This document shows positions 12,375-64,000 of a stretch of DNA of 64,000 nt, piece after piece. The DNA lies in NCBI GenBank assembly GCA_047967505.1, contig CM106538.1; one strand, given 5' to 3'. The first letter of the stretch is position 1; each line of letters opens with the position of its first letter. The position numbers and the translations under genes are program-made. The stretch comes from Dipteris shenzhenensis. Taxonomy: Eukaryota. The notes beneath the pieces are model-generated. The model was not told the origin of the DNA, did no database searches, and saw only the letters and a program-made list of their open reading frames with translations.

Positions 12375-14347
12375 ACTGGTATCAGAGCGCGAGTGATCTA
12401 GCTGAGCATGCGTGAATGCTTGGAAGCTCAGCAACTCTATGGGAGGAAGGAGAAGCTCTGTGGGAAGCTTTGTGGGTGACTTTACTTGTATCCGAGTGTG
12501 TAGAGACCTTGGAGGAACCTTTGGAAAAGTCACTTTGGTTTTGTGAAGTGGTTTTTAGAGCCTGTTAAGTGTTAAAAAAAAAAAAGTCGTTTTTTGAGCT
12601 TTTCCCTGTTCCGTTCGATGACAGAGACTCCATATTGACTTGTAGAGGCAACTATTGCTTGCTTTTGGTGTCCACTTCACTTCAACAGCTTGGAAACACC
12701 TTCATTCTTGAATCTAGGATCATTTCATTGGATTTCTGACTCACTGTGTCAGTTTTTGCGTTTTTTGCCCGGGTGTTGAAACTCAAGTTTGGAGCAACCA
12801 TTTGCAGATTTGTCAGTTCCAGTGGACTCAGGAGTCCTAAAACTTCTATGTTGCTCATCATTCGCACTGTGGTGGAGTTTACAAACAGCTCTGTTTCCAA
12901 AAACGTTTTTCAGTCCGTGTGTTGAACCCAGTGATTGAGACCACGGTTTCCAAAACCATCTGTCATTTCTTAGGGCCAGCATGAGTTTGGCATCACTCCC
13001 ATTCTCTGCTAGTGGTAATCTAGACAAACTAAACCTATAGATTGACATTCCACTAATTTTATTGGCTGCAGTAGGATAATGGCAAAAGTGCCAATGCACA
13101 TGTGAGTTTAGGGATCCTTATGCATGTTTTGAGGTCATGGTATGAGATTGGCACCACTGCCTTTCTCCACTGGTGGCATTCTCGACAGAGATTGACACAA
13201 TTCCATATGATCCATACACAGCGGAGACAGTGATCACTACATAGAAGAATGCACATTACCACTAGCGGAGAATGGCAGTAGGGTAATGGCACTCTGGTGG
13301 AGCAACCATTTGCAGATCTGTCAGTTCCAGTGGACTCAGGAGGTCCTAAAACTTCTATGTTTCTCATCATTCACACTCTGGTGGAGTTTACAAACAGCTC
13401 TGTTTCCAAAAACGTTTTTTAGTCCGTGTGTTGGACCCAGTGATTGAGACCACGGTTTCCAAAACCGTCTATCCCATTGCGTTTCGGATGCCCAAAAACC
13501 CCTACCTGTCAGTTCTTGTGCAATTCGGTGGAGGATTTTTAGAGTTATAGATCTCTGTGTATTCGATTTCGTCTCTCTATTATGTGTTTTTCATTCTAAG
13601 GTTTTGAAACGTTAGATTTATGCCACATGGCAGTGGATAAGTGTTGACTCCCATTTCTCATTCATCGGTTGGGATTTTGGAGTTCTGGCAGAAGAGAGAT
13701 ATTTGCAGATTTTCTTGCTGATTCCGATTATGCAATGGCACCCATGTTTTGAGGCATCTCAGGTTCTATTTTGAGTAGCGGTCATTACCGTGGGACTATG
13801 ATTTCTTGAGCATACCTTATGCAGATCACTCTGGTTGCAGTTTGAGCAGTGTGCGCTCATTCGTGGTATGCATTGGGTTGTAGTGGATGATTTATAGGCC
13901 ATTTGGATGCATTGCGGTCCTTATTGGATGCGGTGATAGGCCCAAATTGCCTTATGGGATGCTATTTTTTATGGACACTTTGCACATGGATGCTATTTTA
14001 TGCTAAGGGACAGCTTTGACACATTGCAGGTAATGCATTGATAGTGCTATGCTCTCTTGGATGAGATATTATTAATGCATATGCCAGTGGACGGTGTTTA
14101 TGCTTGAGTCATTTAGCACTTATTGGCATTTTGGATTGCCATTGTAGTTGGCATTTTCTTTTGGGCCAGATTTGCTCATATGGATGCATAGTATATGCAC
14201 ATGAGTCAGATGCATCTTTTGATGCTTTGAGCTTTGAGTTTTGGTGATATTTCACTCTATTGTGGCATACACATTTGGGTGCACCTGGTATTTGGTGTGA
14301 TTCTCTCTTGTATGCACTAGCATTTGGGATTTTGTTTTATTTGCATT

Positions 14348-19475: not shown

Positions 19476-21683
19476 CTAATAAGAGATTGGCACCATTGCC
19501 ATTCTCCACTTGTACAGATAATTACCCTAATATTCTAGGAGGGGTATTCCAAGGATCATAGGGGTATTCCACATGTGAGATTGGCACCACTGCCATTCTC
19601 CACTGGTGACATTCTCCACTGGTGGCATTCTCCACAGAGATTGACACAATTCCATATGATCTCTACACAGTGGAGACTGTGATCACTACATGGAAGAATG
19701 CACATGTGATTTTAGGCTTCTCAATGCCATTTTCTAGGGCCTAATAAGAGATTGGCACCACTGCCATTCTCCACTTGTACAAATGTTTACCGTACTATTC
19801 TAGGAGGGGTATTCTAGTGATCATAGGAGAGTGGTGTTCGATTCCATTCCACATGTGAGTTTGATGATCTCAGTGTCATTATGTAGTTGCCAGCATGAGA
19901 TTGGCATCACTGCCATTCTCCACTAGTGGTAATCTAGAAAAACCAAACCTGTAGATTGACATTCCACTAATTTTATTAGATGCACTAGGATAATGGCAAA
20001 AGTTTCAATGCACATGTGAGTTTGATGATCTCAGTGTCATTATGTAGTTGCCAACATGAGATTGGCATCACTGCCATTCTCCACTAGTGGTAGTGCCAAT
20101 GCACATGTGAGTTTAGGATTCCTTGTGCATGTTTTTAGGTCATGGTATGAGATTGGCACCACTGCCATTCTCCATAGATATTGACACAATTCCATATGAT
20201 ATCTACACAGCGGAGATGGTGATCACTACATAGAAGAATGCACATGTGAGTTTAGGCTTCTCCACTAGTGGTAATCTAGACAAACTAAACCTATAGATTC
20301 ACATTCCACTAATTTTATTGGCTGCATATGTGAGTTTAGGCTTCACAGTGCCATTTTCTAGGGCCTAATAAGAGATTGGCACCACTGGCATTTTCCGCTT
20401 GTACAAATGTTTACCCTAATATTCTAGGAGGGGTATTCCAAGGATCATAGGAGAATGGTGCCCGATTCCAATCCACATGTGAGTTTGAGGATCTCAGTGT
20501 CATTATGTAGTTGCCTGCATGAGATTGGCATCACTTCAATTCTCCACTGGTGGCAGTCTAGATAAACTAAAATTGTAGACTGACATTCCACACATTTTAT
20601 TGGCTGCAATAGTATAATGGCAAAAGTGCCAATGCAGATGTGAGTTTAGGATTCCTTGTGCCATTTTTAAGGTCTTGGTATGAGATTGGCACCACTGCCA
20701 TTCTCCACTGGTGGCATTCTCCACAAAGATTGACACAAATCCATTCTCAAGTGGTGCCAATCTCTTATTAGGCCCTAGAAAATGGCATTGAGAAGCATGC
20801 ACATGTGACTTTAGGCTTCTCAATGCCATTTTCTAGGGCCTAATAATAGCTTGGCACCTTGCCATTCTCCACTTGTACAAATGTTTACCCTACTATTCTA
20901 GGTGGGGTATTCTAGTGATCATAGGAGAATGGTGTACGATTCCAATCCACATGTGAGTTTGTTGATCGTAGTGTCATTATGTAGGTGCCTGCATGAGATT
21001 GGCATCACTGCCATTCTCCACTAGTGGTAATCTAGACAAACTAGACCTATAGATTGACATTCCACTAATTTTATTGGTTGCAGTAGGATAATGGCAAAAG
21101 TGCCAATGCTCATGTGAGTTTAGGATTCCTTGTGCATGTTTTAGAGAATGGCACCACTGCCATTCTCCACCTGTGGAACATAGAAGAATGGAATGTGAGT
21201 TTAGGCTTCTCAGTGCCATTTTCTAGGGCCCAATAAGAGATTGGCACCACTACCATTCTCCCTCAGTATAGTTGTTTACCCTAATATTATAGGAGGGGTA
21301 TTCCAGTGATCATAGGAGAATGGTGCTAGGTTCCAATACACATGTGAGTTTGGGGATCTAAGTTCCATTATGTAGATCCCAATGGAAATCTACACAAACT
21401 CAACATGTAGATTGACATTCCACTAATTTTATTGGCTGTAGCAGGATAATGGTCAAAGTGCAAATGCACATGTGAGTTTAGGATTCCTTGTGCATGTTTT
21501 CAGGTCATGGTATGAGATTAGCACCACTGCCATTCTCCCCACTGGTGGCATTCTCTACAGAGATTGACACAATTCCATATGATCCATACATAGCAGAGAC
21601 AGTGATCACTACATAGAAGAATGCACATTACCACTAGTAGAGAATGGCAGTAGGATAATGGCAAAAGTGCTAGAGTTTAGGCT
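19476..21683. repeat. Satellite, higher-order unit copy 1
   Basis: Same modules as 1-10246. 19476-~21435 is colinear with 29425-~31368. Confidence 0.92.
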
Positions 21684-27490: not shown

Positions 27491-29397
27491 CTAATGACGT
27501 GGCAATTGGAGATAAGGTGATGACATGGTACCCGATGGTGATGTGGTGTGATTAGATGAGGTTGCCACGTGTCAACTACGTGAGGTGGTAGATAGACCTT
27601 AGGTGGCCCTCACCCTTGGAGCCTTACTGTGGTTAGGTAGGTACCCACTGCACAACCTCGGGTCATCGTAACCTTACCATGGGTAAATCCTATCCTCCAC
27701 GTGGCCTCTTTGTTGAGACCTTAGGAAGAATGTTGCAGAGATGGCGACGTCCTGAATCGGTGAGCCAGACGCTATCGCCTTCTTACTCCATCCACACTGA
27801 TCTTTGCCACTGAGAGCTGGCTTCGCCTTCCGAACTAGCTGCTCCGACTACTACAGTCGAGCCGGCTCTCACGCGCAGGCGTGCGCAGGCGTTCCTTGTC
27901 GGTTAGAAGCACGGCAGCGCCATCGTTCGACAAATACATCAACCATCAAGCGCTCAAAATCGAAGTAGGGAAGGACAATATGTTGGGAGGACTGAGTCCC
28001 CTCAGATCAGAAGCGACTCGTTGCAGCACCAAAGCCGGTCATTGGAGGATCCTTCGGAGATCGTCCGTTGGCTGGCTGTAGAAGGAGCCGTAGGCTAATG
28101 GCAGCCATTCGGTGGGCAATGGCTAATGGCAGCCATTCAGTGGGCTCTGCGCTATGAGAGCTAATGGCAGCCATTTGGTGGGCTGCGCTGGCCTTCGACT
28201 GGTTGCCCATTCATTTGGGTGGCTATGGAGACTTTGTAGAGGTGAGTCGATGAGCTAGGAGCGGCGCGTTAGGCAAAGGCAGCAGGAGGTCGGCAAAGGC
28301 TTTGGAGCCTTTGACTGTTGAGTCGCGCTGGATGCAGAAGCTCGTTGAGGAGGCTGAAGCTCCTAAGGATCGTTGATGGGCTTGCTTGAGCAGAGACCGT
28401 GAAGGAGCGTTTGTTGTAGACGCTGCTGGCTATGGAGAGCCAGGAATCCGAGTAGGTGGGCTGAGCCTTTGGAGCCTTGGCTAACTCAAACTCTCTGTCA
28501 TAAGCATATCTCTCTCACGAAGAGCTCTCACAAACTCTAAATAGTCTCTGAAATCTCTCTTTTCTCTCAAATGAACTCTCCCTATATCCGAGCTTTGTAG
28601 TTCGGAGTAGCCGTCAATGGGCGACTTGTGGGAGTTGTTCACACCCAGGAGCTTGATGGAGCATGTTGGAGTTGTGTCCGAGGAGATGGAGCTGTGCTGA
28701 GTTTTGGAGTCTGCATCAACACCTCGTAGGTAGGTGCACTTTGGCAGCAGCGTTTGGCTGTGGAGCGTGACTCAGGAGCTCGCAGGGTTGATGCGCCTCA
28801 GGTATAGTCGTTGAGGGAGTCTAAGAACTCTTTCTCACAGATATCTCAAAACCTCTCTCTCTTTCACACAATCTCTCAGAGTGAATCTCTCTCAACCAAA
28901 CCTCTCACAATAAGAATGTCTCACAAAATGAATTGAAATCCTCACAAGGAAATCTCAAGAAATGAATGGAAATCTCTTAAGCAATGATGGAAATTTTCTC
29001 TCAATGGACGGAAATTCTCTCTACGGAAGTGAAGGGAAAAATCTCACAATCACTCAAGAGAACTCTCAATCTCACAATCTCTCTCACACTCTCAAGAAGA
29101 ATGGCACCTCAGCGGAAGGCAGAACCAAGCTCTGATACCATGACAAAATATGAAGAGGGGAGAGGAGAAGAGTGGAGATGAGGAGAGAGGGCACATCTAG
29201 AGAGCACACCACAAATGACTAACTATACACTAGATTTAGTTGAAAAAATAGAATATATACAAACCCTTTTAGGGTTAGGGTTAGGGGATCTAACCCTTTC
29301 CTTTATAGCACTCTATAAGGTTAGTGCTATGCACATATGATCACGTGATGGTGCTATGCACACATGATCACATGATGTTGAGCGTGAACTCTCAACA

Positions 29398-31370
29398 AGG
29401 CTTCACAGTGCAAGTTTTTAGGGCCTCATAAGAGATTGGCACCATTGCCATTCTCCACTTGTACAGATAATTACCCTAATATTCTAGGAGGGGTATTCCA
29501 AGGATCATAGGGGTATTCCACATGTGAGATTGGCACCACTGCCATTCTCCACTGGTGGCATTCTCCACAGAGATTGACACAATTCCATATGATCTCTACA
29601 CAGCGGAGACTATGATCACTACATGGAAGAATGCACATGTGAGTTTAGGCTTCTCAATGCCATTTTCTAGGGCCTAATAAGAGATTGGCACCACTGCCAT
29701 TCTCCACTTGTACAAATGTTTACCGTACTATTCTAGGAGGGGTATTCCAGTGATCATAGGAGAGTGGTGTTCGATTCCATTCCACATGTGAGTTTGATGA
29801 TCTCAGTGTCATTATGTAGTTGCCAGCATGAGATTGGCATCACTGCCATTCTCCACTAGTGGTAATCTAGAAAAACTAAACCTGTAGATTGACATTCCAC
29901 TAATTTTATTGGCTGCAGTAGGATAATGGCAAAAGTTTCAATGCACATGTGAGTTTGATGATCTCAGTGTCATTATGTAGTTGTCAGCATGAGATTGGCA
30001 TCACTGCCATTCTCCACTAGTCGTAGTGCTAATGCACATGTGAGTTTAGGATTCCTCGTGCATGTTTTTAGGTCATGGTATGAGATTGGCAACACTGCCA
30101 TTCTCCATTGATATTGACACAATTCCATATGATACCTACACAGCGGAGACGGTGATCACTACATAGAAGAATGCACATGTGAGTTTAGGCTTCTCCACTA
30201 GTGGTAATCTAGACAAACTAAACCTATAGATTGACATTTCACTAATTTTATTGGCTGCACATGTGAGTTTAGGCTTCACAGTGCCATTTTCTAGGGCCTA
30301 ATAAGAGATTGGCACCATTGCCATTTTCCGCTTGTACAAATGTTTACCCTAATATTCTAGGAGGGGTATTCCAAGGATCATAGGAGAATGGTGCCCGATT
30401 CCAATCCACATGTGAGTTTGAGGATCTCAGTGTCATTCTGTAGTTGCCTGCATGAGATTGGCATCACTTCAATTCTCCACTAGTGGCCGTCTAGATAAAC
30501 TAAACTTGTAGACTGACATTCCACACATTTTATTGGCTGCAATAGTATAATGGCAAAAGTGCCAATGCACATGTGAGTTTAGGATTCCTTGTGCCATTTT
30601 TAAGGTCTTGGTATGAGATAAGTACCACTGCCATTCTCCACTGGTGGCATTCTCCACAAAGATTGACACAAATCCATTCTCAAGTGGTGCCAATCTCTTA
30701 TTAGGCCCTAGAAAATGGCATTGAGAAGCATGCACATGTGAGTTTAGGCTTCTCAATGCCATTTTCTAGGGCCTAATAATAGATTGGCACCTTGCCATTC
30801 TCCACTTATACAAATGTTTACCCTACTATTCTAGGTGGGGTATTCTAGTGATCATAGGAGAATGGTGTACGATTCCAATCCACATGTGAGTTTGTTGATC
30901 GTAGTGTCATTATGTAGGTGCCTGCATGAGATTGGCATTACTGCCATTCTCCACTAGTGGTAATCTAGACAAACTAGACCTATAGATTGACATTCCACTA
31001 ATTTTATTGGCTGCAGTAGGATAATGGCAAAAGTGCCAATGCACATGTGAGTTTAGGATTCCTTGTGCATGTTTTAGAGAATGGCACCACTGCCATTCTC
31101 CACCTGTGGAACATAAAAGAATGGAATGTGAGTTTAGGCTTCTCAGTGCCATTTTCTAGGGCCCAATAAGAGATTGGCACCACTACCATTCTCCCTTGGT
31201 ATAGTTGTTTACCCTAATATTATAGGAGGGGTATTCCAGTGATCATAGGAGAATGGTGCCAGGTTCCAATACACATGTGAGTTTGGGGATCTAAGTTCCA
31301 TTATGTAGATCCCAGTGGAAATCTGCACAAACTCAACATGTAGATTGGCATTCCATTGATTTTATTGGTA
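29398..31370. repeat. Satellite, higher-order unit copy 2; right edge of the array
   Basis: Colinear with 19476-21435, including the same inverted segment; decays after ~31370. Confidence 0.92.
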
Positions 31371-34867: not shown

Positions 34868-37040
34868 CAAAAAAAAGAACCAAATATGGCTAAGGAGCAA
34901 AAGAAAAAAGAACCAAATATGGCTAAGGAGAAAAAGAGAGAAAAGAGAGGGGAAAAGAAGAAAAGAGTGGAAAAAAGAGAGGGGAAAAGAAGAAAAGAGA
35001 GAAAAAAAGAGAGGAGAAAAGAGAGAAAGAATATCCTTATGCTTATGCATGAGCATATGAGCATATGCTCATGCATAAGCATAAGCATCTACTTTAGGAT
35101 ATGCTTATGAAAAGAGGGAAAAGAGCATGAAAGAGAGGGGAAAAGAGAGGGAAAAAGAAGAGAAGGAAGAGGGGAAAAGAGAGGGCCAAAAGAGAGGGGA
35201 TAGAGAACAAAAGAGAGGAAAAAAGAGAGGGGAAAAGAAGAAAAGAGAGAAGAAAAGAGAGGGGAAAAAGAGAGAAAGCATATGCAAATGAGAGGAAAAA
35301 AGTGAGGGGGAAAAGAGCTTATGAAAATAGAGAAAAGAGGAGAGCGAAAAGAGAGAGAAAAGGAGGGGGAAAAAGAAGGAAAAGAGAGAGGGGAAAAGAA
35401 GAAAAAAGAGGAAAAAAGCGAGGGGAAAAGAAGAGAAGGAGAGAAAGCATATGCTTATGCTTATGCATGAGCATATGAGCATATGCTCATGCATCTACTT
35501 TAGCATATGAGCATGCATATGCTTATGAAAAGGAAGAGGAAGGAAGAGGAAAAAAGAGAGGACTTTGAGAAAAGAGGATGAAAGAGAGGGAAAAAGAGGG
35601 GAAAAGAGAAGGAAAAGAGAGAGGGGAAAAGAGACGGGACAAAGAAGAAAAGAGAGGGAAAAGGAGAGGGAAAAAAAATAAAAGAGAGGGGAAAAAGAGA
35701 GAAAGCACATGCAAATGAGAGGAAAAAAGTGAGGGGAAAAAGAGCTTATGAAAATAGAGAAAAGAGGATGAAAGAGAGGGAAAAGAGAGGGTTGAAGAGA
35801 AGGAAAAGAGAGAGGGGAAAAGAAGAAAAGAGAGGAAAAAAGAGAGGGGAAAAGAGAAGAAAAAGAGAGAGGGGAAAAGAAGAAAATATAGGAAAAAAGA
35901 GAGGGGAAAAGAAGAGAAGGAGAGAAAGCATATGCTTATGCTTATGCATGAGCATATGAGCATATGCTCATGCACGGGCATATGAGCATATGCTCATGCA
36001 TCTACTTTAGCAAATGAGCATATGCATATGCTTATGAAAAGGAAAAGGAAGGAAGAGGAAAAAAGAGAAGACTTAGAGAAAAGAGGGTGAAAGAGAGGGG
36101 AAAGAGAGGGAAAAAGAGGAAAAGAGAAGGGAAAGAGAGAGGGGAAAAGAAGAAAAGAGAGGAAAAAAGAGAGGGGAAAAGAACAGGAGAGAAAGCATAT
36201 GCTTATGCTTATGCATGAGCATATGAGCATATGCTCATGCATCTACTTTAGCATATGAGCATGCATATGCTTATGAAAAGAAAGAGGAAGAGGAAAAAAG
36301 AGAGGACTTAGAGAAAAGAGGATGAGAGGGGAAAAAGAGAGGGAAAAAGAGGGGAAAAGAGAAGGAAAAGAGAGAGGGGAAAAGAAGAAAAGAGAGGAAA
36401 ATAGAGAGGGAAAAAGAAGAGGCATGAGCATATTATGAGCATATGCTCATGCATGAGCATAAGCATATGAGCATATGCTCATGCCTCTACTTTAGCATAT
36501 GAGCATAAGCATATGCAAATGCATATGCTTACGAAAATAGAGAAAGAGGATGAAAGAAAGGGGAAAAGAGAGGGAAAAGGAAGAGCGGACGCGATTGAAA
36601 GAAAGGAAGAGATAAACAAAAAGAGAGGGGAAGAAGAGAAGGAAGAGGATGAAAGAGAGAAAGAGAGAGGAAAAAAGAGAGGGGAAAAGAAGAAAAGAGG
36701 AGTTCAGAGGATGAAAGAGTAGAAGGAAAAGAGAGAAACAATATGCTTATGCTTATGCTTATGCATGAGCATATGAGCATAAGCTCATGCATAAGCATAA
36801 GCATAAGCTTATGACCATATGCTTTTGAGCTCATGTATAAGCATAAGCATATGAGCATATGCTCATGCATAAGCATAATCATATGCTTATGAGCTCATGC
36901 ATAAGCATATGCGAAATAGCGGAAAAGAGAGGGGAGGAAGAAGAGGAAATAATAGAGGGAGGGAAAGAGGGGGGAAAGAGGGAGGAAAAGAGGGGCAGAG
37001 GGAAAGAAGAGGGAATAAGAGAAGAGAGGGGAAGAGAGGG
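34868..37040. repeat. Polypurine (GA-rich) tracts alternating with palindromic GCATGAGCATATGCTCATGC blocks
   Basis: A/G-only runs of 100-300 bp separated by ATGC-rich blocks at ~35035, 35447, 35928, 36195, 36421 and 36742. Larger internal duplications are present. Confidence 0.93.
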
Positions 37041-39050: not shown

Positions 39051-41699
39051 TGTTGGGATATATCAAGGCGTATGCCTCAGGCACACTTGGTTTCTATGTG
39101 TGAGTGCTAGAGGCACAGTTAGGTGCCCATAAGCATAGTTAGGTGGTGGTAAGCCACATAGGATGATTGAGAGAATCTAGGAGCAGATCGAGGAGATGAT
39201 TGTGGAGCTCTGAAGTCATCAATGATGTCAGTGAGCATGTAAGGGGTGCCTACATAAGGACCTCACTCTTCTTCATTCTATATGCAAGTATTCTGAATTT
39301 GTGTCCACTCTACTCTTTCCTTTCAGTTTACCAACATGGTATCAGAGCCATTTGATCCTCCTTGATTCCATTTCTGCCACATCATCATCTTCTTCTCCAC
39401 CTTCTTCTTCACCATCTCTTCCTCTTCTTCCCAAAACTTGCTTAAGCCTGTTCTCCTCCATTTCTCTACCGTTCTCCACGCCCTTCCTACTAGAGATACA
39501 CCTCAAAGGGGCGAACCCTTGGCTGCAAGGAATCAACAAATTATCGCTTCTGTTCGTCGCCATTTCATGTAGATCGTCGACCCTTCTTCCTGTGTTTTCT
39601 CTTAGAATGCTCCATGCTTCTCTAATTCCTTTCAGAGGGAGCTTGTCCATACCTAGAGCTATCCTGTTCTGAAATCTAAGTAGCAATGGCTACATATTCA
39701 AGCTGAAAACAGAGAAAAACCAGTCGAAAATGGAGAGATAAGCTATGGTTCCCTGACGTGATTTTGCGCCCTTTCTCCTCAGTGGACCTTCTATGGTATA
39801 CAAGCTTTATTTTGCTTCAAAAATCCCCTTTTTCTTTGCTCTGGAGAGTGAGATTCAAGCCCTCCAAGTTCAGTCTTTTGATTTTGACAGTTTTGATAAG
39901 TTTTTGAGAGTGATGCTACATAAGATGCTATTCTAGCATTTCTGAGTTTTTGAAGTTTTCAATAACATCAATACAACTGTGGCTTCAGCTTTACTTTGAG
40001 TTGCTATACCTGGTTTTGATTGGAAAGCTTTCATTTTTAGCCACCTCTATGAAGCATGTAAGAAAAAGTATCATTGATTGAATTTTGGTCACTAGTCTTT
40101 GCTACATTAAATGCTTATATTTGGAAGCCTTTCAATTGTTATTCTAGCCTTGTAAGAGAGAAGACACTGCCCAATACTTGGGTTAGACCCTCTCATGGCT
40201 ACCATATTGAATATAGATAAGTTCAATGGAAAGGGCTTCCACACATGGCAGATGAAGGTGAAATTTGCATTGATGAGGGAAAACCTCTGGGGACTTGTCA
40301 AACCGACTTCAACTTCTTCTTCTACAGCCTCCAATGCTGGAGAATCCTTAGCTCTGACATGCTCGACGAGGGATCCCAGAGAGGAGAAAGCATATGGTAT
40401 CATTGCTCTTGCTTTAGGAGATGATTATATTCATCACATATCTGACTTAGAGTCTCCTTTTGAAGCTTGGCAGAAGCTTGATATGATTTTTGGTGCTAGT
40501 TCTCACATCTCAAAATTATCACTTAAAATCTCTTTCTTTGAATTAAAGATGGTTAGTGGCACTCCTTTGGCAGCCCATGTCAATTACATGTGGAGTCTTA
40601 TGACTCAACTTGCTTCTATCAACTCTCCTATCACTACAGATGATGCTATGGCAGTGTTGCTTAAGAGTATGCCTGAAGATTATGATCATATTGTTACCAC
40701 TTTAAAAAATCTTCCTAATCCTAATCTTGAAGGTATTATCTCTGCTCTCCAAGAAGAAGAAAGGCACATGGAGCTCAGGAAAGGCAATGACATAGCTTAT
40801 GCTATAAAAATCCAGAAGGGCAAGTTTACACCTTGCAATCATTGTGGGAAGACAAATCACCTTTCAACTACTTCAAAATCAATCCATGCAAACACTGTGG
40901 CAAAAACAATCATCATGAGAAGTTTTGTAGAGCCAAAAAGGAAGAAACTTCAAAGACAGAAAATGCCAATCTACTTTCAGTTGATGTGCCTCCACAACAT
41001 GAGGCATCCTTTGAAGATTATGCATTTTAAATCATCTCTATGTATGCTCCAGATCTCTCTTTTTTATCTTGAGTCAAGGTACTTAGCCTGGATAGTCCTC
41101 CAAAATGAATGAAATAAACTATTGTGTCTTGTGTGTTTTTTGTAAACACCTCTGGTGACCTTATTATGTAGACCATGTGTATGTGTTTTGCTCCATGGTA
41201 CCTCGTGCAGACATTGTGTGCATGTACATACAGGGGAGATAACCATTGGAAGGTCTTTTTGTATCCCTTTTGTTTACCTTATACCCATGGGAACCCTTGC
41301 TAGCTTGAGATCCTAGCCATTGATAGATCCATGACCACCATGAGATGGCATGAGACACCTTGTGCTAGCTGTATCCTTGACATAGCCTGAGGCATTCCCT
41401 TGAGGGGGGGTTTGTTAGGATATATCAAGGTGTATGCCTCAGGCACACCTTGGTTTCTATGTGGGAGTGCTAGAGGCACAGTTAGGTGCCCATAAGCACA
41501 GTTAGGTGGTGGTAAGCCACATAGGATGATTGAGAGAATCTAGGAGCAGATTGAGGAGATGATTGTGGATCTCTGAAGTCATCAGTGATGTCAGTGAGCA
41601 TGTAAGGGGTGCCTACATAAGGACCTCACTCTTCTTCATTCTATATGCAAGTATTCTGAATTTGTGTCCACTCTACTCTTTCCTTTCAGTTTACCAACA
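39051..41699 (+). mobile_element. Gag-only non-autonomous LTR retrotransposon A (TR-GAG-like, 2.65 kb)
   Basis: LTRs at 39051-39336 and 41413-41699 (TG..CA), TSD GTGAA, PBS TGGTATCAGAGCC, PPT GAGGGGGGG, no pol. Confidence 0.93.
40195..41030 (+). pseudogene. gag: Copia-type Gag with two CCHC zinc knuckles, frameshifted between the knuckles
   Basis: IDKFNGKGFHTWQMK, LLKSMPEDYDHIV, CNHCGKTNH, then CKHCGKNNHHEKFC in another frame. Confidence 0.88.
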
Positions 41700-42678
41700 G
41701 TGAACCCTTTCAGATTATGCTCGACATCTTGGTCGACATGGCCCATAGACTTGGTGAATTACAATATCCCACCATGGCTAACAAGAAGAGACACCTCATG
41801 CTTGCACTACTTATGCCAGGGAAGTACAAGGCCAAGAATATGGATGTGTACATGTCACCTTTGATAGAGGAGTTACAGATCTTATGGAGAGGAGTGTGGG
41901 TCTTTGATATTTCCAGAGCTCCTAGACATACCAATGACATTTTGGTCAAGAGAATATTGATGTGGACCATACATGACTACCTAGGATATGGAGAGTGCGC
42001 AGGTACGTGGTTGTGTCTTTACATGTATAATATATGATTATGCTTTTATGAGTCTCTTTCGTGTGCATGTCTTATACTAGCACATTCATGCACGCATGCA
42101 GGACTTGTTACAAGTGGGTACCATGCTTGTCCTATTTGTGGGCCGAGTCATACTCGATACCTTTCGCTGGACCACATCTCGCGCATGGAGGCCAGCTTGA
42201 TCCACCACCACCATATTTGAAGGCAAGTGATTGGATTCAGGCTTGGAGGGTGAATGGAGAGGAGCCTCCTTATGGTATGAAGAGGCTATCCATCTTTCAC
42301 GAGCTTCCTTACTGGGGTCACAGTTACAAATCAATCATCTCTTGGATCCCATGCATATCTTCAAGAATGTGGGGAATACTATTTGGCACACTTGGTTGGT
42401 TCCAAAGACTCCAAAGGAGTGTGAGAAGACTTGTGCGCTATGAATAGGATTCCTTGTTTGTGGCCCCAAGTGCCTGTTCATAAAGTTGTCCTCCCAAAGT
42501 AACATGGATCCTCTCCAAGAGAGAGGAGGCAGTGGTCAAGGTGGACATTGCCTCTTCTCGAACACCGATAGGGTACATGCATTGCTTGAAAGGAGCATTT
42601 TCAAAGGACAATAAGCTTAGTGCACTCAAGTCCCATGATTAGCACAAAGTCTTATAGGTATTCTAAGCTGTAGGATTA

Positions 42679-45446
42679 TGTTGGGATAAGTATGATCAAG
42701 GGCTTGCTCTATGGTGCATGTGTGCATCTCGGGAGTCACATGTGTGTTTGTGTGTGTTGTAAAGGCACATCAAGTGCTATGATGTGTCTAGTGTGTGACC
42801 TAAGTGATGATGTAAGCCAAAGGCCCCCACAGGGGAGGTTGATTTAGGCTAGTCCCACTGATTTAGGGACTGATTCCCACTAATGTAGGGGCTGATTGCC
42901 ACTTATGTAGGGAAGGTGCTACCTTCTCCCCCTTTCTATAAGAGAGATTCCTCTCTCACACAATCTATAATAGAGAACTACATTTTTGGTTTCATTGTGC
43001 TCTCACTCCTCTTCCAAGATGGATCTATTCTATCCTACAGGATTCTACACTTGGTATCAGAGCTTTAGGTTCTAGATCTAGCCTAGCCTAGCATTAGATT
43101 CTCTCTCTAGCATAAACTACTAGTTTTTGAAAGCTTATTCATCATCTCCATTTTCCTCTTTCTTCCCCAAATTTTGTAAGAGCATGTTCTCTACCTACAG
43201 GCAACTATTCTCCAAGTCCTCTGAGCTGTAGACTCCTCGTGTATGGGTTCCCTTCCAGCTGCAAGCAATTAGAGAAATATTACCTGTACGCGCAATGCCA
43301 ACACGAAGATTGTCTGTCGATGAATTGCAAAATTTTGCCTCTGTGGTCACCTATCTGCAAATCCCTCTGAGCTTGAGCTGGACAACACTACAGGCAAGCT
43401 GCTGATGAAATCTGAACCCATTTGGTCAAGAATTGGAGGCGCAACAGACAAAAAACCAGTCGATTTTCCAAAGCTTGGCTATGGTGACCTGGCGCAATAT
43501 TGTGCTCTTCCTTGGTGGAGGACCTTCTCTGGTATAAGGCCTTTCTTCCCTGTATAAAAATCCCCTTGAATAGAGCTATGAGCTATGAGAATTGTACCCT
43601 CCAAGTTCAGGCCTCTGTTTTGGACAGTTTTGACAATGTTGTGAGTTTGATGCTACAATAGATGCTACTCTAGCATTTCTGATGTTTTAAACTCTTGAAT
43701 AGCATCAACAACTGTGGCTACAACTTTCCTTTAAGTTGCTATACCTGTATTTACTTGGAATACTTTCATTTAGCCACCTCTATGAAACATGCAAGTTGAA
43801 GCATCATTTCCATTATGATTTGTAGTATGGAATTTGGTTACAAGTCTTTGCTACACTAAATGCTTGTACTTTGAAGTTTTTCAACTTTTTCTAGCCTTGT
43901 AAGAGAGTAGACACTGCCCATTTTGGGTTAGACCCTCTCATGGCTACCTTCTTGAATATGGATAAGTTCAATGGTAAAGGCTTTCACACATGGCAGATGA
44001 AAGTTAAGGTTGCATTGATGAGGGAAAACCTCTGGGGGCTTGTCAAACCTACTTTCACTTCTTCTTCAACAACCTCTAATGCTGGAGAATCCTCAGCTCC
44101 TACATGCCGGGCATGAGATCCTGCTAGAGAGGAGAAAGCTTATGGCACTATTGCTCTTGGCTTAGGAGATAACTATTTTCATCTCCTTCTAAAGCTTGGC
44201 AGAAGCTTTATATTATTTTTGGTGCTAGCTCTCACATCTCAAAATTGTCACTTAAGATTGCTTTCTTTGAATTGAAGATGGCTAGTGGCACTCCCTTGGC
44301 TGCCCATGTCAATCACATGCAGAGTCTCATGACTCAACTTGCTTCTATCGACTCTGCAATCACTACAGATGATGCAATGGCAGTATTGCTCAAAAGTATG
44401 CCTGAAGATTATGATCATGTTGTTACCACTTTGAAAAGTCTTCCTAATCCTACTCTTGAAGGTCTTATTACTGCTCTTCAAGAAGAAGAAAGGCACATGG
44501 AACTCCGGAGAGGCAATGACATAGCCTATGCCATAAAAACTCAAAAGGGCAAGTTTTCACCTTGCAGACATTGTGGGAAGACTAATCACCTCTCAAAAGA
44601 TTGCTTCAAGATCAATCCTTGCAAACATTGTGGCAAAAACAATCACCATGAAAAGTATTGTAAATCCAAAAAGGAAGCAACTACAAAGCCAGAAACTTCC
44701 AATTTACTTTCAGTTGATGTGCCTCCACAAGATGAGGCCTCCTATGAAGAATATGCTTCGTAAGCACTTTGTCTTTTTTATTTTTTTTAATCATCACTTG
44801 GTCAAATTTTGAGGTTCTCTACCTGGAGTAATACTCCAAAAAGAATATCATATGTTATTTTGTAAATCACCTCTAGTCACCGTATGATGTAGACCATGTG
44901 ATATGTGTTTTGTCTATCCCGTTTCTGTGAAACTCACACCCTTGGGAACCCTTGCTAGCATGAGATCCTAGCCATAGATTTATCTTTGACCACCATGAGA
45001 TGGCATGAGAAACTATGAGACTAGATGTATCCTTGACACTGCAAGAGGCAAACCCTTGAGGGAGGGTATGTTGGGATAAGTATGATCAAGGGCTTGCTCT
45101 ATGGTGCATGTGTGCATCTAGGGGAGTCACATGTGTGTTTGTGTGTGTTGTAAAGGCACATCAAGTGCTATGATGTGTCTAGTGTGTGACCTAAGTGATG
45201 ATGTAAACTAAAGGCCCCCACATGGGAGGTTCCTTTGATTTAGGCCAGTCCCACTGATGTAGGGACTGATTCCCACTAATGTAGGGGCTAATTGCCATTT
45301 ATGTAGGGAAGGTGCTACCTTCTCCCCCTTTCTATAAAAGAGAGTCCTCTCTCTCACAATCTATAATAGAGAACTACATTTTTGGTTTCATTGTGCTCTC
45401 ACTCCTCTTCCAAGATGCATTCTATTCTATCCTACAGGATTCTATA
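42679..45446 (+). mobile_element. Gag-only non-autonomous LTR retrotransposon B (2.77 kb), in a transposase intron
   Basis: LTRs at 42679-43049 and 45069-45446, TSD GATTA at 42674-78 and 45447-51, PBS at 43052, PPT GAGGGAGGG. Confidence 0.93.
43939..44763 (+). pseudogene. gag: Gag homologous to element A, with an early stop and a small deletion
   Basis: ATGGCTACC start, MDKFNGKGFHTWQMK, TGA near 44115, knuckles CRHCGKTNHLSKDC and CKHCGKNNHHEKYC. Confidence 0.88.
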
Positions 45447-56893: not shown

Positions 56894-57655
56894 AATCACT
56901 ATATTAGAGAATTTGGGAAAATCCCAATTCCCACGAAATAAAATATAGTCACTTTAAAAGTAAAATTTGATGTTTTTTATTGAAACATTAGCTCCATTGA
57001 GGACCATGCACAATACTTTCCCAATTCCTAGAAACCCAAGCAAAAATCTTCCGTATGTTGCTATGGCAAAAGGCCTTAATAGATGTGAACATGGCTCCAT
57101 GGCCAAAACATTTGTTGATTTGCTAGTGAAAGAAAGATGTTTGTTGTTTCGTATGCATCAAAACCACAAACAAAAGCCAATTTATAGATGTTGCATTAGG
57201 AAGATTCATTGGAGTAAATTAAATTGCAGTATTGATATATGCAATAGGATTGTTATTGATCTTTAACATCCATCATATAAATGTGGTCTTCAAAAACAAA
57301 ATTAAACTTGCAACAACTGTTAATTTTTATTTGGTATATTAGATGTATCAAATTAATGTCAAATGCATATGTTTCTATGTTGATAAATTGTAGTATTGAC
57401 ATATGCAATAGGATTATGGTAGAGCTTTGACATCCATCATATAAATGTGGTGTTCAAAAACACCGTTCCATCACAATTTCCATCACAATAGAGCTCATGA
57501 AACTCTCCATCACAATAGAGCTCATGAAACTCAGAGACATGGTCTTGATAAAAACCTTTTTTTTAATTGCTTTCTTGTACTAAATATAATCAAAACCATT
57601 GACACATAGCCAATTTTTCACCACATCGTTTAACATAATCATTAACAATTCCATA

Positions 57656-58213
57656 CTAGTATTCATACTCACAAAGTAGCTCATCTCCAAAGGAGATATC
57701 CTTTATGGTTTGCATAGTAATGTAGCCATGGGCACTCAAATTTCCTTGTGACTTTTGAGCCCAAGGTGGTAGTTTAGGGATGTATACAAATATAACATTT
57801 GTTCTTTCTTTATAATACATTGAGCTATTTATATATCCAGCAATGTTTCTATACAATACATCTCCCACAATACATTTCACATCTGTCAATGGCTCAATGA
57901 ATGGATCTTCAAACATTCCATAAGTCTTCATCCTTGGGAAAAACTTGAGGAGAGATCTCCAAGTATCATAATCATACTTTGGACCATTATATACCATCAA
58001 ATCTTGTTTTTTCTTGATGCTCGTATGTACAAAAAGACCATATCCTACCCTAGGTATTGTTGATTTCTTTACTTCATATTGGATGCCATTCATTTCGAAC
58101 ACGTGCTCAATGGGTATGGGCAATTTATGTTTCCATAAGCCATTGGATTCAGGATCAAAATTTGTAATAAGATAGCTCTTCAACTTTTCAGGACAATCTG
58201 CAACACCTATCAT
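57656..58213 (-). CDS. Compact SET-domain (lysine methyltransferase-like) protein or terminal exon
   Basis: VKKSTIPRVGYGLF (GxGxF motif I), NIAGYINSS (variant of RFxNHS), IKDISFGDELLCEY (GxELxxDY); open for 185 aa. Confidence 0.8.
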   Translation of the reverse strand: MIGVADCPEKLKSYLITNFDPESNGLWKHKLPIPIEHVFEMNGIQYEVKKSTIPRVGYGLFVHTSIKKKQDLMVYNGPKYDYDTWRSLLKFFPRMKTYGMFEDPFIEPLTDVKCIVGDVLYRNIAGYINSSMYYKERTNVIFVYIPKLPPWAQKSQGNLSAHGYITMQTIKDISFGDELLCEYEY

Positions 58214-58460
58214 ATGTTTAAAATCAAAGAATCATTCTTTTAGTGGAGGAATACAAACTCACATCACAAAGCACATAGCATTTTTTGGACAAGGTACTAA
58301 CTCAATGTCTATTAATTCTTTCACAAAACAAATTGGAACATAATGTTTTGCAAATTGAATCTAACCAAATAGTGTCCAAATATAAATCAGAATGTAGGTA
58401 CAAATGTTTTAGTTGAGCATTTGTGTCTACAACTCTAATTAACAAGATCACTCACATTCC

Positions 58461-59749
58461 CTAAGGGTTGTCTATGCAATAAAATCGAATCAAGTTGGCT
58501 AAGAATGCCCTTGCAGCATCGGTAGTGATTCCCCTTTCCTTGCATCCAAGAACCATAGCAAAGCGTTTTGCCTCACTATCTTTCGATGGCCCCATTTTGG
58601 CAATTTTTCCTAGCATGCATTCTTCCTCTTCATTCAATGTAACATGTTGAGCATGCACCATACTTCTTGTAGTAGGACAAGTCCCTCTCACTCTAGTTTT
58701 GTTTATAGGTGAAGTAATACCTTTCTCTGTGTCTTTTCTTGAACTACGAGTAGACATATGAGATTCGACATTCATCCTTTCGAGAACTTCTTTGTTTTTT
58801 TCTTTGAATTCAAGGATCACTGGTTGAAAATAATAGAACATATCATGCCCTTCGACAATCGGAGCTTGACCAAATCTGTTAGAAGAGATGGCACTGCGCA
58901 CATCTACTGCATCATCTAGCATCTGTAGGTACGATAATAACTCATGAAGCAAAATAGAATCACCACAATCTATATCAAATTTTGTAGGGAAAATGCAATT
59001 TTCTGCTGGATTAACACAACCCGTGTAAGGCAAAACATCAATGAACACTGTTCTTGTTGGTTTGCATTCCTCTTTAAAACAACACCACACTCTCATTAAT
59101 GGTTTAAACTCTGCTTCCACATTCATCCTATCTGGTCGAATGATTCTACTCTTTGTGTGCTTGTGGCATGCCATCACACCCCAAACCATGAAGAAATGTA
59201 ACTTTCTGTTAACATGATGCTCCAAAGTGTCCAGCATGTGTTGCACCATGCCCTTTTCTCCTGCAGTGGACCAAATGCCAACATGGTAGTGATCGAGCAA
59301 CCATTGTAGAAACTCTAAACACCCAGGATGGAGAACAAGCCAATGCTTCCCATTGTGCAAGCTCATATGTTTATTTGACTTCAAAAAACAACGCTCGAGC
59401 AATAACCCTTTCAAATCTATTATCACTACTAGTCTTATTTTTGTTATCACCTCTTTTGACATTATTTCTGAGGGTGACATTATGTCTTCTCCTTTACCTT
59501 CTAAGATTTCTTCTTGCACCTTGGCTTCATACAATGACATTGCATCTTCTCCTTTACCTTCTAAGCTTGCATTCACATTTGTCAATGGAACATTAACTGT
59601 AGACATTGCATCCTCAACATTTTCAATCAACCATGTTGAGCTTGGAACTTGCATGCTAATGTTCAAATTAGGCACATAATGAATCATTGGATCAGGTGTC
59701 ACATGTATAGGCAATGCTTCTAGCGATGTGAAATTGAGATGGCCAATAT
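58461..59749 (-). CDS. FCP1/NIF-family HAD phosphatase-like exon
   Basis: VVIIDLKGLLL (motif I variant), HPGCLEFL..VGIWSTA, TVFIDVLPY..NPAENCIFP. The exon starts after acceptor TTTCCTTGTTTATCAACAG at 59750. Confidence 0.75.
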
Positions 59750-60448
59750 CTGTTGATAAACAAGGAAATGAAATTCATAAGTAGAAACAAACTAAAGATT
59801 GAGATGGAAAACCAAATTGTCAAACTTTAGGTTGTGTGCTCAATGCAATTTGTTTGTGTGAAAGCATTCATGTTTTTCTTTTTCAAAACAAAATTGGAAT
59901 ACTAAAAAAAAGAAAGCATTCATGTTCATATGCTTAGTATACCCCCTAAAGTTGTTGAATCTATACCCTTTCAAGTTATTTTAATCCCCAAAACTACATA
60001 TCCTTACAATGCCAAAAACCTTTGCATAATAGATAGAGTGGAGTCCTACATTATCTAGCATTGCCCGAGTGTTCCCACTAAGAAAAGATTTGGCCAAATG
60101 GCCAAAACATATTTGAGCTTTCATATGAAGTGAATAAGGATAGAAACAACAATTTACACTAATTCATTCATCACGATCAAGACTCAACACACTTTTTAAC
60201 ATTTATGAACTCATAAATAAATTTGGATGTGTATCACACTCCAAAGGTATTACAACATGCAAACACATCTTTTCATGAAATATAGAAAATTAAACATATT
60301 CAAGAATACATATTAATGTTTGAATTATGGCAATGAGACAGAAGAAATTTCCAAGTACTTTGGAACAAAATTAATACATCATATGGAGAATATAGCAAGA
60401 TAACATATGGAAAACACGAACACCATATAAAAGGACAATTTCAAGGAC

Positions 60449-61964
60449 CTGTTGCTTCCTCTTCTGTTTCCCAAAACTTTGAAGCATGTTTTTGTAAATG
60501 CTCACGCTGCTCTTCATTAAAGGGTTGAAGCTCTTTTTGTCCTAGTATGGTATCAATTTCTTTATCCCCTCCACCTTCAATTGTATCATCTTCTTTTGGT
60601 ACCCCCTCTATTGCCAATATTGGTTCTTACAAGCCAGCCCATTGTCGAATTTCATGATTACTGTAAGCATACATGCAACATATACTTTCAACCTTTGCCA
60701 ACTCCTCATAAGTCTCAACAACTAAAACAACACGCCTCTTACAAGAAAGAGACTCTATTGCAGCAAGCCCCTCAGAGAACAAGTCCAATACATACTCATC
60801 TTCTCGACAGAAACCCATGATCATGTCTTTCATGATACTTGAATGTTTTCTTTTCAAGGATAATTCAATGTCAAATTCATCATCATCATCCTCGTCATCA
60901 TCATCCTCATCACCTGATTCTTCTGCACCACTTGATTTTTCATATTTTTCATCTGCAACATATATTGATGGCTTACATTGTGCATTGGTATAGCACTCAA
61001 TATCATTGAAATGCTTTTCCTTGCTTACCAGTACACACGCAATTAAGCCATCCATAGATCCAGTGACAAATATATCTGCAGTTTCAAAATTAAGGCAACC
61101 GAAGTGTATTTTATATTGTCCGCATGTCTTATTTAATGCATTCTTCAAACATGATACATGATCCATGGTCAAGAACGCCACAAGAAGGAATTGCACTAGG
61201 GGAGAAGCGATTGTCATCAAGCTTTTCAACAAACACTCAAAGCGATCCTCATTCCAATTTCTACTTCTGCTTGGTCCATACATTACATCCAAAAAGGCAA
61301 CCCCTATTGCCATTGGCTCTTGGTACACATTATGTATAAATTCCATTCCCTCCATGTTTGAACTGACTGTGTAGAACCTCCAAGGCCGGGTGGAATTCGG
61401 TTCATGACTTGCACCTTCACTTTGTCCCATAATCCACCTCAGATACCCCTTTGCAGCATTAGGCAATGGTGGAGTTTCCTTGCCGTGTTGAAGCTTCACT
61501 TTTAACCATGAGTCAAAGCAACCACGAATCCGATGATACAATTCTGGAGTAATTTTAAAATGTAATCTGCACTCATCCCAATTTTCTAACATTAAAGAAG
61601 GCCGTCCTGCCGATATAAACATATAAAGTTCTTCTTGTAGTGCAGCATCTCTCTTGATCTGCATAGCTCGTCCTTTAATATCAAGAATCATGGCATCAGT
61701 CTTTGTTTTAGCTATGACTACTCTACCTTCCTTAATGTCATTTTGAATTTGACTAATTTGATCATCACTCAATCCACGCAAGCATCTAAACATTAAGACT
61801 GTGGGTTGCCTACGGCATTTTCCATCTTGTGAATATTTGCCTGCAATGTAATCCTCAAGGATGGAGATCCAACCATCATAAATGGCATCGCTTGTGATTA
61901 TCATATGTACATCCTTCGTGGCAAAGCTATTGCCCAATGTTACCTTGCCAGTGTCAATGAAAGC
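60449..61964 (-). pseudogene. Exon with helical region, beta-class amino (N6A/N4C) DNA methyltransferase-like domain and acidic tract; one in-frame TAA at 60627-29
   Basis: IGVAFLDVMYG (DPPY-like motif IV, 61289-61278) lies upstream of REDEYVLDLFSEG..RRVVLVVE (SAM-binding motif I/II, ~60791-60720). Acceptor TTTTGCAG at 61965, donor CAG|GT at 60448. Confidence 0.6.
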
Positions 61965-62049
61965 CTGCAAAATATATGAATCCATTATAATGCAATAATT
62001 AAGAAAACCGACTTGTAAAAAATGATTCATAATTAAAATCTGTACTTAC

Positions 62050-62556
62050 ATCCCAATTCTGACGATCTGGATGTCCTTTTGCAAGCCCTTGTTGTGCTTT
62101 TTTGGGTATGTTAAAGAGAATCCATTGTCCCCTCACCTGCTTAAGTATATCAATGTATGGAGATTGTCTCAAGATATTTTGAGACTCCAGGTTTGCCATC
62201 TTTGATATCTCCACACAAAAGCGTGCAGGACAATTCACTACAATCCTCACTAGCGGATGCGGTAGTAGTTCTTTCTTTGGGCTGTGCTGTTATCATCATT
62301 AGATGTGAATATTTTAGCAGCATATATTGAATGTTGTCCAGATAGTATCCAGTAGTGGCACTTGGTTAAATCCTTTTTATCTACCCTTTCCAGGGGCTGC
62401 TTTGTTTCAGGATTGAAAGGCATTAAATCCGCTACAGCAATAGGAGGCCTAGAGTTATAACCGAAGTCTGCAGCAAGCTTCTCCACATGCTCTTTGTTCA
62501 ACCCTCTATATACATAGCTTGGAGGAGCTTTTTGACATCTTGCAACTGGAATTGAA
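62050..62556 (-). pseudogene. Exon encoding a ParB/Sulfiredoxin-like domain; one frameshift at ~62251, 5' part cut by an LTR insertion
   Basis: SIPVARC..YRGLNKEHVEKLAADF..YWILSGQHSIYAAK..VRIVV..N matches the ParB N-terminal pattern (R-x-L..V..LA..; hhhxGxHR..A). Donor GAT|GTAAGT at 62049. Confidence 0.65.
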
Positions 62557-64000
62557 TGTTGGGATATCTCAAGGTGTATGCCTCAGGCACACCTTATGTT
62601 TCTATGTGTGAATGCTAGAGGCACAGTTAGGTGCCCACAAGCACAGTTAGGTGGTGGAAAAGCCACATAGGATGATTGAGTGAATCTAGGAGCAGATTGA
62701 GGAGATGATTCTGGAGCTTTGAGGTCATCAGTGATGTCAGTGACCTTGTATGAGGTGCCTACTTAAGGACCTCTTTCTTCTTCATTCTATATGCAAGTAT
62801 TCTGATTTTGTGTCCACTCTACTCTTTCCTTTCAGTGTTCCAACATGGTATCAGAGCCATTTGATCCCCCTTGAGCCCATTTTTGCCACATCATCATCTT
62901 CTTCCTCTTCTTCTTCTTCACCATCTCTCCCTCTTCTTCCAAAAATTTGCTTGAGCTTGTTCTCCTCTGATTCTCACCCATTTCCCACGCCCTTCTACTG
63001 GAGATCCCTCTTGTTGGGGCGAGTTTACGGCTGCAAGCAATTGAAGAATAATACGCGCTGCTGGTCGCCATTGCACGAAAATCATCGATTCTTCTTCCTG
63101 TGATTTCTCTGCGCCTGCTTCGTCTTTGTCTAATTCCTTCCAGGGCAAGCTTCTCCATACCTAGAGCTACCTTGTGCTGAAATCTGAGTAGCAATGGCTG
63201 CATATTGAAGGAGAAAACAGAGAAAAACCAGTCGACTTTGTTCAAGAAGGTGAAGGCGACCTGACGCATATTTTCGCCTCTTCTTCCCAGAGGATCTACT
63301 GTGGTATACCAGCTTTCTTTTGCCTCATAAATCCCCCTTTCTTTTGATTTGAAGAGTGTGATATGAGCCCTCCAAGTTCAGCTCTCTAGTTTTGACAGTT
63401 TTGACATACTTTTGAAAATGATGCTACATAAAATGCTACTCTAGCATTTCTGGTCTTTTGAAGTTTTCAATAACTTCACTACAAGTGTTGCTTCAGTTTT
63501 GTTTTGACTTGCTAGACCTGGTTGTGATTGGAAAGTGTTTATTTCATCCACTTCTATGAAGCATGCAAAAAGTAGCATCATTGTTTGAAAACTAGTCACT
63601 ACTATTTGCTACATCAAGTGCTCATACTTTGGAAGCATTTCAATTATTTTTGCCTTGTAAGAGAGATAGACACTGCCCAATATCTGGGTTAGACCCTCTC
63701 ATGGCTACCTTATATAATCTTGAGAAGTTCAATGGAAAGGGCTTCCATACATGGCAAATGAAGGTAAAATTTGCATTGATGCGGGAGAACTTATGGGGAC
63801 TTGTCAAACCTACTCCTACCGCTTCTTCTACGGCCTCAAATGCTAGACAATCTTCAACTCCGACACGACCGGCAAGGGATCCAGCAAGAGAAGAAAAAGC
63901 ATATGGTCTAATTGCTTTAGCTTTGGGTGATGATTACATACATCATATATCTGACTTGGAGTCTCCATCGGAAGCATGGCAGAAGCTAGACTTGATTTTT
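62557..64000 (+). mobile_element. LTR retrotransposon C (same family as A), truncated by the window end
   Basis: LTR at 62557-62845 similar to A's LTRs, PBS TGGTATCAGAGCC at 62846, leader homologous to A and B. Confidence 0.9.
63701..64000 (+). CDS. gag: Gag N-terminus, open to the window end
   Basis: MATLYNLEKFNGKGFHTWQMKVKFALMRENLWGLVKP, homologous to the gag of elements A and B. Confidence 0.88.
   Translation, partial: MATLYNLEKFNGKGFHTWQMKVKFALMRENLWGLVKPTPTASSTASNARQSSTPTRPARDPAREEKAYGLIALALGDDYIHHISDLESPSEAWQKLDLIF

Follow-up and report, generated by a model that had tools for sequence, protein, structure and literature searches.

The window analysed here, i.e., the whole stretch of 64,000 nucleotides from Dipteris shenzhenensis, is eukaryotic DNA rich in repeats, among which are satellite arrays and remnants of retroelements. 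On its minus strand lies a gene of three exons, whose product is composed of ParB-like, helical, pseudo-methyltransferase and NIF-like parts. Exons 1, 2 and 3 are the three regions of the window matched by Adiantum gene models, which reach 1246 residues. In a metagenome locus (L001), this gene is found again, its three exons being open and free of stops and its introns located correspondingly. The span 60700..61330, which the original prediction had singled out, is part of one exon of this larger gene; the ParB-like and NIF-like domains, the SET neighbour, the lesions, and the transposon context had escaped that prediction. By searching 1.84 billion representatives, we retrieved 54 relatives at E 0.001 or better (best identity 34-37%), and all the named ones come from ferns, i.e., Adiantum nelumboides throughout and one Ceratopteris richardii protein. 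The features are as follows.

56897..56933, minus strand: probable element end, downstream of the gene, shared with L001
57092..57105, no strand assigned: one-mismatch copy of TGGCC-N4-GGCCA, near the element end
57656..58231, minus strand: SET-domain open frame, 191 codons bounded by stops, lying between gene and element end
58461..59749, minus strand: exon 3, linker, NIF/FCP1-like HAD domain (Pfam NIF, E 5.8e-10) and small C-terminal helical domain
59750..60448, minus strand: intron 2, predicted from the sequence and homologous gene models, GT..AG, phase 1
60449..61964, minus strand: exon 2, helical domain, beta-class methyltransferase-like domain and acidic linker
about 61964-61400, minus strand: helical domain within exon 2
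about 61394-60645, minus strand: methyltransferase-like domain within exon 2
61275..61298, minus strand: position of motif IV, AFLDVMYG
60876..60911, minus strand: acidic tract DEDDDDEDDDDE, 12 trinucleotide units
60768..60791, minus strand: position of motif I, VLDLFSEG
61965..62049, minus strand: intron 1, predicted, 85 nt, GT..AG, located as in L001 with respect to the protein
62050..62556, minus strand: exon 1 remnant, putative ParB/Srx-like domain (WILSGQHS), 40-44% to the Adiantum protein P0060, in two frames
62557..64000, plus strand: LTR retrotransposon inserted into exon 1, LTR from 62557 to about 62845, running off the window

AFLDVMYG, DEDDDDEDDDDE and VLDLFSEG share one minus-strand frame and occur in that order. 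Exon 3 matches P0060 at 40%, and its acceptor site matches that of L001.

Lesions and variation of the window copy

The window copy is a dead pseudogene because of a Copia-type insertion, a frameshift and a stop. The retrotransposon inserted at 62557, which we take to be Copia-like, has its primer-binding site at 62846 and cuts off the 5' part of exon 1; an element with the same LTR start is found at 39051 (82% over 1456 nt). The frameshift is located in exon 1, near 62251, and exon 2 is interrupted by an in-frame stop at 60627-60629. A contig from a related sample matches 61283-62554 and then continues with 523 unlike letters, which is consistent with an empty insertion site.

Sequencing reads of a related organism were also mapped on this stretch. 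In two DNA runs, it is covered at about 96% identity, and in both of them around half of the depth skips 356 nt (60571-60928), so that this shorter form misses both the acidic tract and motif I. Of the coding differences that separate the window from the related sample, 23 are listed, and 14 of these change a residue, which is near neutral for these 23 and is not a dN/dS estimate; 181 more differences lie outside that list. In two RNA runs of the same organism, the mean depth is about 5 or less over the coding bins, no spliced joint was found (including over intron 2), and 96-98% of the reads continue into unlike sequence, mostly at the microsatellite. These RNA runs are no evidence for or against expression.

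Several other repeats were observed in the window. Three LTR-element pieces are related to one another (39051-41699, 43443-44760, and 62557-64000), and the LTRs near 39051 and 41413 resemble the one starting at 62557 at about 90%. A satellite-like array, with a unit of roughly 150-160 nt, occupies 1-13300, 19476-21630, and 29377-31344; two satellite blocks, separated by 9.9 kb, are about 98-99% alike, and an element located between them may have these blocks as its LTRs. From 34919 to 36912, purine-rich low-complexity repeats are interleaved with palindromic GCATATGC/CATG-rich units.

The methyltransferase-like domain

The original prediction had proposed a methyltransferase with the beta permutation, i.e., with motif IV before motif I, and both the fold and the motif order bear this out. 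Modelling with AlphaFold2 on 31 sequences (mean pLDDT 78.2) confirmed, beyond chance, that the domain folds as a beta-class amino-methyltransferase, with the permuted Rossmann-like fold and motif IV ahead of motif I that characterize PF01555-type enzymes. When the model was compared to known structures using VIA-align, the top 11 matches were all beta-class amino-methyltransferases (Z 12.9-14.9, rmsd 3.6-4.3, 186-225 residues aligned, identity 14% or less), the METTL3/MTA1/METTL4 group came next (Z 8.9-10.8), and unrelated folds were found at Z 6.3 or less. The best PDB matches in Foldseek were CcrM, M1.HpyAVI, Mod subunits, M.BceJIV, M.MboIIA, M.PvuII, rotifer N4CMT, and M.RsrI (best E 1e-6), and viral structures agree on the fold.

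At the sequence level, a Pfam scan of the window copy did not detect the domain, and, among 21 aligned sequences, PF01555 was found in P0053 only (E 7e-5, which does not reach the curated cut-off). A language-model search pointed to a N6_N4_Mtase cluster at 0.89, which is a lead only, and M.RsrI could be aligned by profile over the motif X/I region (E 0.02, weak), the PDB giving nothing beyond this match by sequence. Fold searches with a model of P0060 (1125 residues, pLDDT 52.6) were uninformative, because the model is poor and the gene model is devoid of the motif I half.

We then counted the motifs in the 50 sequences in which more than 170 domain residues are covered, the 18 shorter ones of the 68 profile hits being excluded. 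The motif IV Asp is kept in 49 of these 50 sequences and is followed by Pro at +1 or +2 in none of them; the pattern [DNSH]PP[YFW] is absent anywhere in the protein in all 68 profile hits. The three residues after the Asp vary freely, giving 17 different strings in the 50 sequences, of which DAAH and DTTH are the commonest; these, DNTE and similar strings are also found in intact, recently multiplied relatives. Because many of the 50 sequences are near-identical, we also made the count on 16 lineages sharing less than 70% identity. Of these, 14 have the motif IV Asp, and all 16 have the SAM-motif core D/E-x-F/Y-x-x-G (D/E394, F/Y396, and G399) as well as L406. Relative to D-x-F-x-G-x-G, motif I has the first Gly in 6 of the 16 lineages, and it lacks one residue when compared to M.RsrI. 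As for the Tyr of DVMY, it aligns with His in the closest relatives (TAT versus CAT in L001) and hence need not be a relic of DPPY, although the fragment P0026 carries DGAY.

Read from these alignments, the loss of the catalytic motif is a family trait and not the decay of one copy. The original prediction had left the choice between a family of pseudo-enzymes and a copy decayed from DPPY/FxGG. The former stands, all the relatives found being without the motif, and the latter fails, intact relatives having DAAH, DTTH, or DNTE at this place.

The domain is nevertheless not free to vary. Between L001 and an Adiantum copy, 226 of its 240 residues are identical (94%), versus 173 of 213 in the linkers (81%, p 3e-5), a difference which shows constraint on the fold, not on what the fold does. 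For the NIF exon, dN/dS is 0.20-0.24 in 3 of 15 pairs, which belong to one subfamily and are not independent, and for the methyltransferase exon it is saturated in all three pairs. With such a constraint, and with the SAM-motif core and most of the Asp preserved, intact members might be active methyltransferases with a non-standard site, modifying DNA, RNA, or a protein although they have no Pro-Pro-aromatic loop; the relevant parts of the publications on the algal analogues present these as enzymes predicted to be active (PMC12477816, bioRxiv 2025.02.11.637652). We consider this improbable, in view of the free variation after the Asp, of the short motif I, and of the TRD loop, of which neither the length nor the sequence is conserved among relatives. 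Moreover, Pro-Pro-aromatic is needed to position the target base. On this comparison of motifs, the intact proteins very probably do not methylate DNA.

The acidic tract, for its part, is a (GAT)n microsatellite of 12 units encoding 12 acidic residues. It is located in the loop between the last strand of the motif IV half and the helix preceding motif I, which is where the TRD of beta-class enzymes sits, and in the model it falls in a disordered part (residues 328-357, pLDDT below 50). In the 47 sequences spanning this loop, the longest D/E run reaches 12 residues in the window copy and 5 in a single relative, and does not exceed 3 in the 45 others. Within this set, the tract is private to the window copy, and it plays no conserved part. 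The idea of the original prediction that it could be a histone-binding addition is thus unsupported, since all 46 relatives have runs of 5 or less. Most relatives (19 of 24) nonetheless have a loop of net acidic character, with a charge of -3 to -9, and the linker following the domain contains 15-49% D/E in the 14 relatives measured; an acidic surface or function in the family is therefore possible. That the tract itself is functional is hardly credible for a trinucleotide repeat seen in 1 of 47 sequences, in a copy broken three times and of which a second form, in the related sample, does without the 356 nt that include the tract and motif I. We give the same very low likelihood to decay of the window copy alone, the canonical motif being found in no relative.

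The origin of the family was also searched for. A word-index search returned no relative among 3676 candidates with the single exon, and one match, already known, with the 31-sequence alignment; tblastn on phage records gave none for both queries, and there was none among 72 candidate viral contigs and 25 candidate prokaryote genomes. In these searches, which reach close relatives only, neither a donor lineage nor a relative with an intact catalytic motif was found. The most divergent relatives, P0053 and P0022, have the most canonical motif X/I (FSGG and YSGG), and P0053 matches PF01555 and phage methyltransferase profiles; the catalytic motif is missing in both of them too. They are the best seeds for tracing the origin of the family.

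Other domains, probable cargo and probable mobility

The ParB/Srx nucleotide-binding motif is of the GxRR or DGQHR type. In the exon 1 region of the family, it reads IIDGQHS or IISGLHS, with Ser where Arg is usual. Profile matches are weak (best E about 0.01) and include PHROG ParB-like (4 of 17), DGQHR (1 of 17), DUF6551, and DUF1015, and the region is modelled at pLDDT under 50. From the motif and the convergence of several weak matches, we tentatively call this region ParB-like. The nearest language-model neighbour of the ParB-plus-helical part is DUF3723 (PF12520; score 0.96, 12 of 30 hits, without alignment), and the Pfam DUF3723 profile matched no protein scanned. On the other side of the gene, the NIF/FCP1 profile (PF03031) scores 39.5 bits in the window, versus a cut-off of 21.8, and 61 bits in P0066. 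Its DxDx(T/V) motif is replaced by DLKGLL in the window and, among 16 pattern-matched proteins, by DLNGLL in 14 and SLCGLL in 2.

Downstream of the gene, the open frame at 57656..58231 matches the SET profile (PF00856) over its whole length, with 19.8 bits versus a curated 22.4 (E 0.0011). It has no solved relative by sequence and no tblastn hit in the five loci L001-L005, and is probably further cargo. In L002, a second, divergent NIF-like frame (3219-4037, E 6e-12) lies downstream of the family gene, between palindrome arrays, and is probably variable cargo. Hence the downstream cargo differs between loci, i.e., SET in the window, a second NIF-like frame in L002, and neither of them in L001.

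The probable element end contains a hairpin, TTGGGA-N3-TCCCAA (56913-56927), and CACTA on the plus strand (56897-56901). It matches L001 at 7272-7304 (33 nt at 88%, E 6e-5), while the two proteins are only about 34% alike, and the best local alignment of the non-coding tails scores 47, versus at most 38 in 200 shuffles; by themselves, the hairpins are modest (z -1.9). In the window, the end is adjoined by a truncated reverse-transcriptase remnant whose match to another copy stops at 56893, which leaves 3 nt unexplained; beyond the end motif, L001 carries a zinc-knuckle frame. The motif rests on these two loci, and L001 reads CTCCA where the window reads CACTA; elements of the EnSpm/CACTA (CMC) superfamily end in CAC(TA)..(TA)GTG and make a 2-3 bp duplication. 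An alternative end two to eight bases further in, TAG[A/G]G, fits both loci as well, and TAG[A/G]G is how hAT elements start. Helitron and Harbinger readings were also considered, and neither fits both loci.

Copy number gives a further view of mobility. In Adiantum nelumboides, one subfamily (the P0066 cluster) comprises 20 gene models at 90% or more; 15 of these 20 are listed on contigs of 15 different sizes, at 94.7-99.6% identity to one member. Chimeric gene models show different, unrelated flanks, the labels of these flanks being our assumption. We thus have a dispersed multi-copy family with a shared end, this end being seen in two loci only. No transposase, second end, or target-site duplication was found in the window or in L001, the other end lying beyond both. 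One Adiantum gene model, P0067, has an extra N-terminal region (residues 1-348), which we take to be hAT/ZNF862-like in appearance, and neither Pfam nor the PDB supports this; the region might represent the transposase that is lacking elsewhere, or else a neighbour by chance. Separately, a transposase remnant of CACTA type was observed at 41660-42444 on the plus strand (Transposase_21, E 2e-14, with the Transposase_21 remnant placed at 41660-42034), between LTR-element pieces, with no link shown to the element studied here.

A further recurring feature is a palindrome, TGGCC-N4-GGCCA, which is a candidate binding site. It is present in 4 of 6 loci, with one exact copy in the window, in intron 2 (60091-60104), three copies in L001, four in L002, and one in L005; L003, L004, and 40.6 kb from elsewhere in the window have none. 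For each of these four loci, the count was reached by 0 of 100 shuffles. These shuffles overstate its significance, because the pattern was chosen after seeing L001 and L002, and the window and L005 are the fairer tests. Just upstream of the L001 start codon, a 59-nt tandem repeat (86-238, 2.6 copies) holds the palindrome or its one-mismatch form in each copy. In L003, which belongs to a distant subfamily, the palindrome differs, being of the GCTCAAA/TTTGAGC type (46-63, 2112-2129, and 2203-2222), with 7 half-sites versus a shuffle mean of 0.95. The palindromic site and the protein might therefore change together.

The dispersed copies, the shared 3' hairpin motif, and the recurring palindrome together indicate a DNA-transposon accessory gene, and it is quite likely that the unit is a mobile DNA element of which 56897 is one of the ends. 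Alternatively, these could be host genes, domesticated or never mobile, the Adiantum copies resulting from polyploidy, segmental duplication, or assembly redundancy. Such genes would explain the conserved introns, the purifying selection, the lack of a transposase, and the low copy number of the window subfamily, which, in the two DNA runs of the related sample, looks like one or two copies (identity of 85% or more) and not like a large family. They would account less well for 20 copies at 90% or more, which exceed the usual ploidy, for the differing flanks of the chimeric models, for a cargo varying among the window, L001, and L002, for a common end motif beside retroelement remnants, and for a dead window copy nested among retroelements. 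We therefore see little chance that host genes are the explanation.

Proposed role and comparison with known systems

Our main reading, to which we give a probability of about 0.7, is that the stretch is the catalytically dead methyltransferase-like domain of a fern DNA-transposon accessory gene, whose window copy is a pseudogene. What the protein would do is more tentative. We infer that it could be a DNA-binding scaffold, with distinctly less than even odds, and, by analogy, a role in self-recognition of the palindromes and in anti-silencing is no less doubtful. In such a mechanism, the target of the ParB-like and helical part would be the TGGCC-N4-GGCCA palindromes of the element itself. 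The methyltransferase fold would be retained for its structure or for SAM binding, similarly to the dead subunits of the METTL14 type, and the NIF-like domain and the SET neighbour would act on host transcription and chromatin, and thereby help the element to be expressed or to move. A bolder version, which we regard as unlikely, is that the accessory protein assembles three disarmed folds (ParB without Arg, beta-methyltransferase without Pro-Pro-Tyr, and HAD phosphatase without DxDxT), binds its own palindromes, and uses bound SAM/SAH as a sensor against silencing. If true, VANC would not be alone in land plants, and a second sequence-specific system against silencing, unrelated to it, would have arisen from a ParB-methyltransferase fusion of bacteria or phages.

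No description of the fern family was found in the open-access literature. The 2011 work of Iyer, Abhiman and Aravind is cited for green-algal cases, and ParB-HTH fusions in chlorophytes are among the subjects reviewed in PMC4738411. Among the closest known systems is a gene of the Ectocarpus element Sola1-1_Ec32, whose product of 1104 aa combines ParB-like and N4C/N6A methyltransferase parts and is presented, in the passage devoted to it, as a possible new class of accessory proteins, proposed to bind the element's own sequence (PMC12477816). As is likely for the fern family, a ParB-like domain and a prokaryote-type amino-methyltransferase are fused on a transposon, and the sizes are alike (1246 aa in Adiantum models). 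Compared by description, the fern family differs by the catalytic motif, missing throughout, and by the added NIF-like domain; that same passage makes no mention of motif loss (PMC12477816).

In red algae, the Plavaka accessory genes PAG2 and PAG3, on elements of the EnSpm/CACTA group, are reported to carry PF01555 methylase, SET, and ParB domains; inverted-repeat arrays adjoin the ParB gene, and the cassette moves between transposon superfamilies, according to the sections concerned (bioRxiv 2025.02.11.637652). In these algal genes, the fusion partner of the methylase is SET and that of ParB is a 2OG oxygenase, whereas in the fern gene, again compared by description, the ParB, methyltransferase-like, and NIF-like parts are fused and SET is separate and variable. 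DUF3723 (PF12520) is described as a conserved cargo of fungal Starships, and is thus mobile-element cargo too (bioRxiv 2021.12.13.472469, in the part concerned).

With the beta-class enzymes (CcrM, M.RsrI, M1.HpyAVI, M.MboIIA, M.PvuII, EcoP15I Mod, and rotifer N4CMT), the fern family shares the fold and the motif order, but it has no (D/N/S)PP(Y/F/W) and its motif I is one residue short. Marchantia MpDN4MT1 is likewise a land-plant protein with a beta-class 4mC methyltransferase domain; according to the passages on this protein, it differs in keeping TSPPY, in being active, and in being a host gene (bioRxiv 2021.02.12.428880), and it was not among the named hits of our family searches. Amino-methyltransferase folds kept without catalysis are known from METTL14 / Kar4 and from the inactive methyltransferase domains of DIRS1, the latter on a mobile element, as the relevant part of the review reports (PMC4738411). 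These belong to other clades and architectures than the fern family, for which an active partner is not known.

In conclusion, ParB-methyltransferase accessory genes have already been published for algal transposons, and the fern version, very probably without catalysis, is a variant of this kind. The algal genes have been proposed to bind and to methylate their own element. In ferns, the fusion is under constraint after catalysis has very probably gone, which argues that binding, and not methylation, is the core job, and the fern family offers a candidate target sequence together with intact copies.
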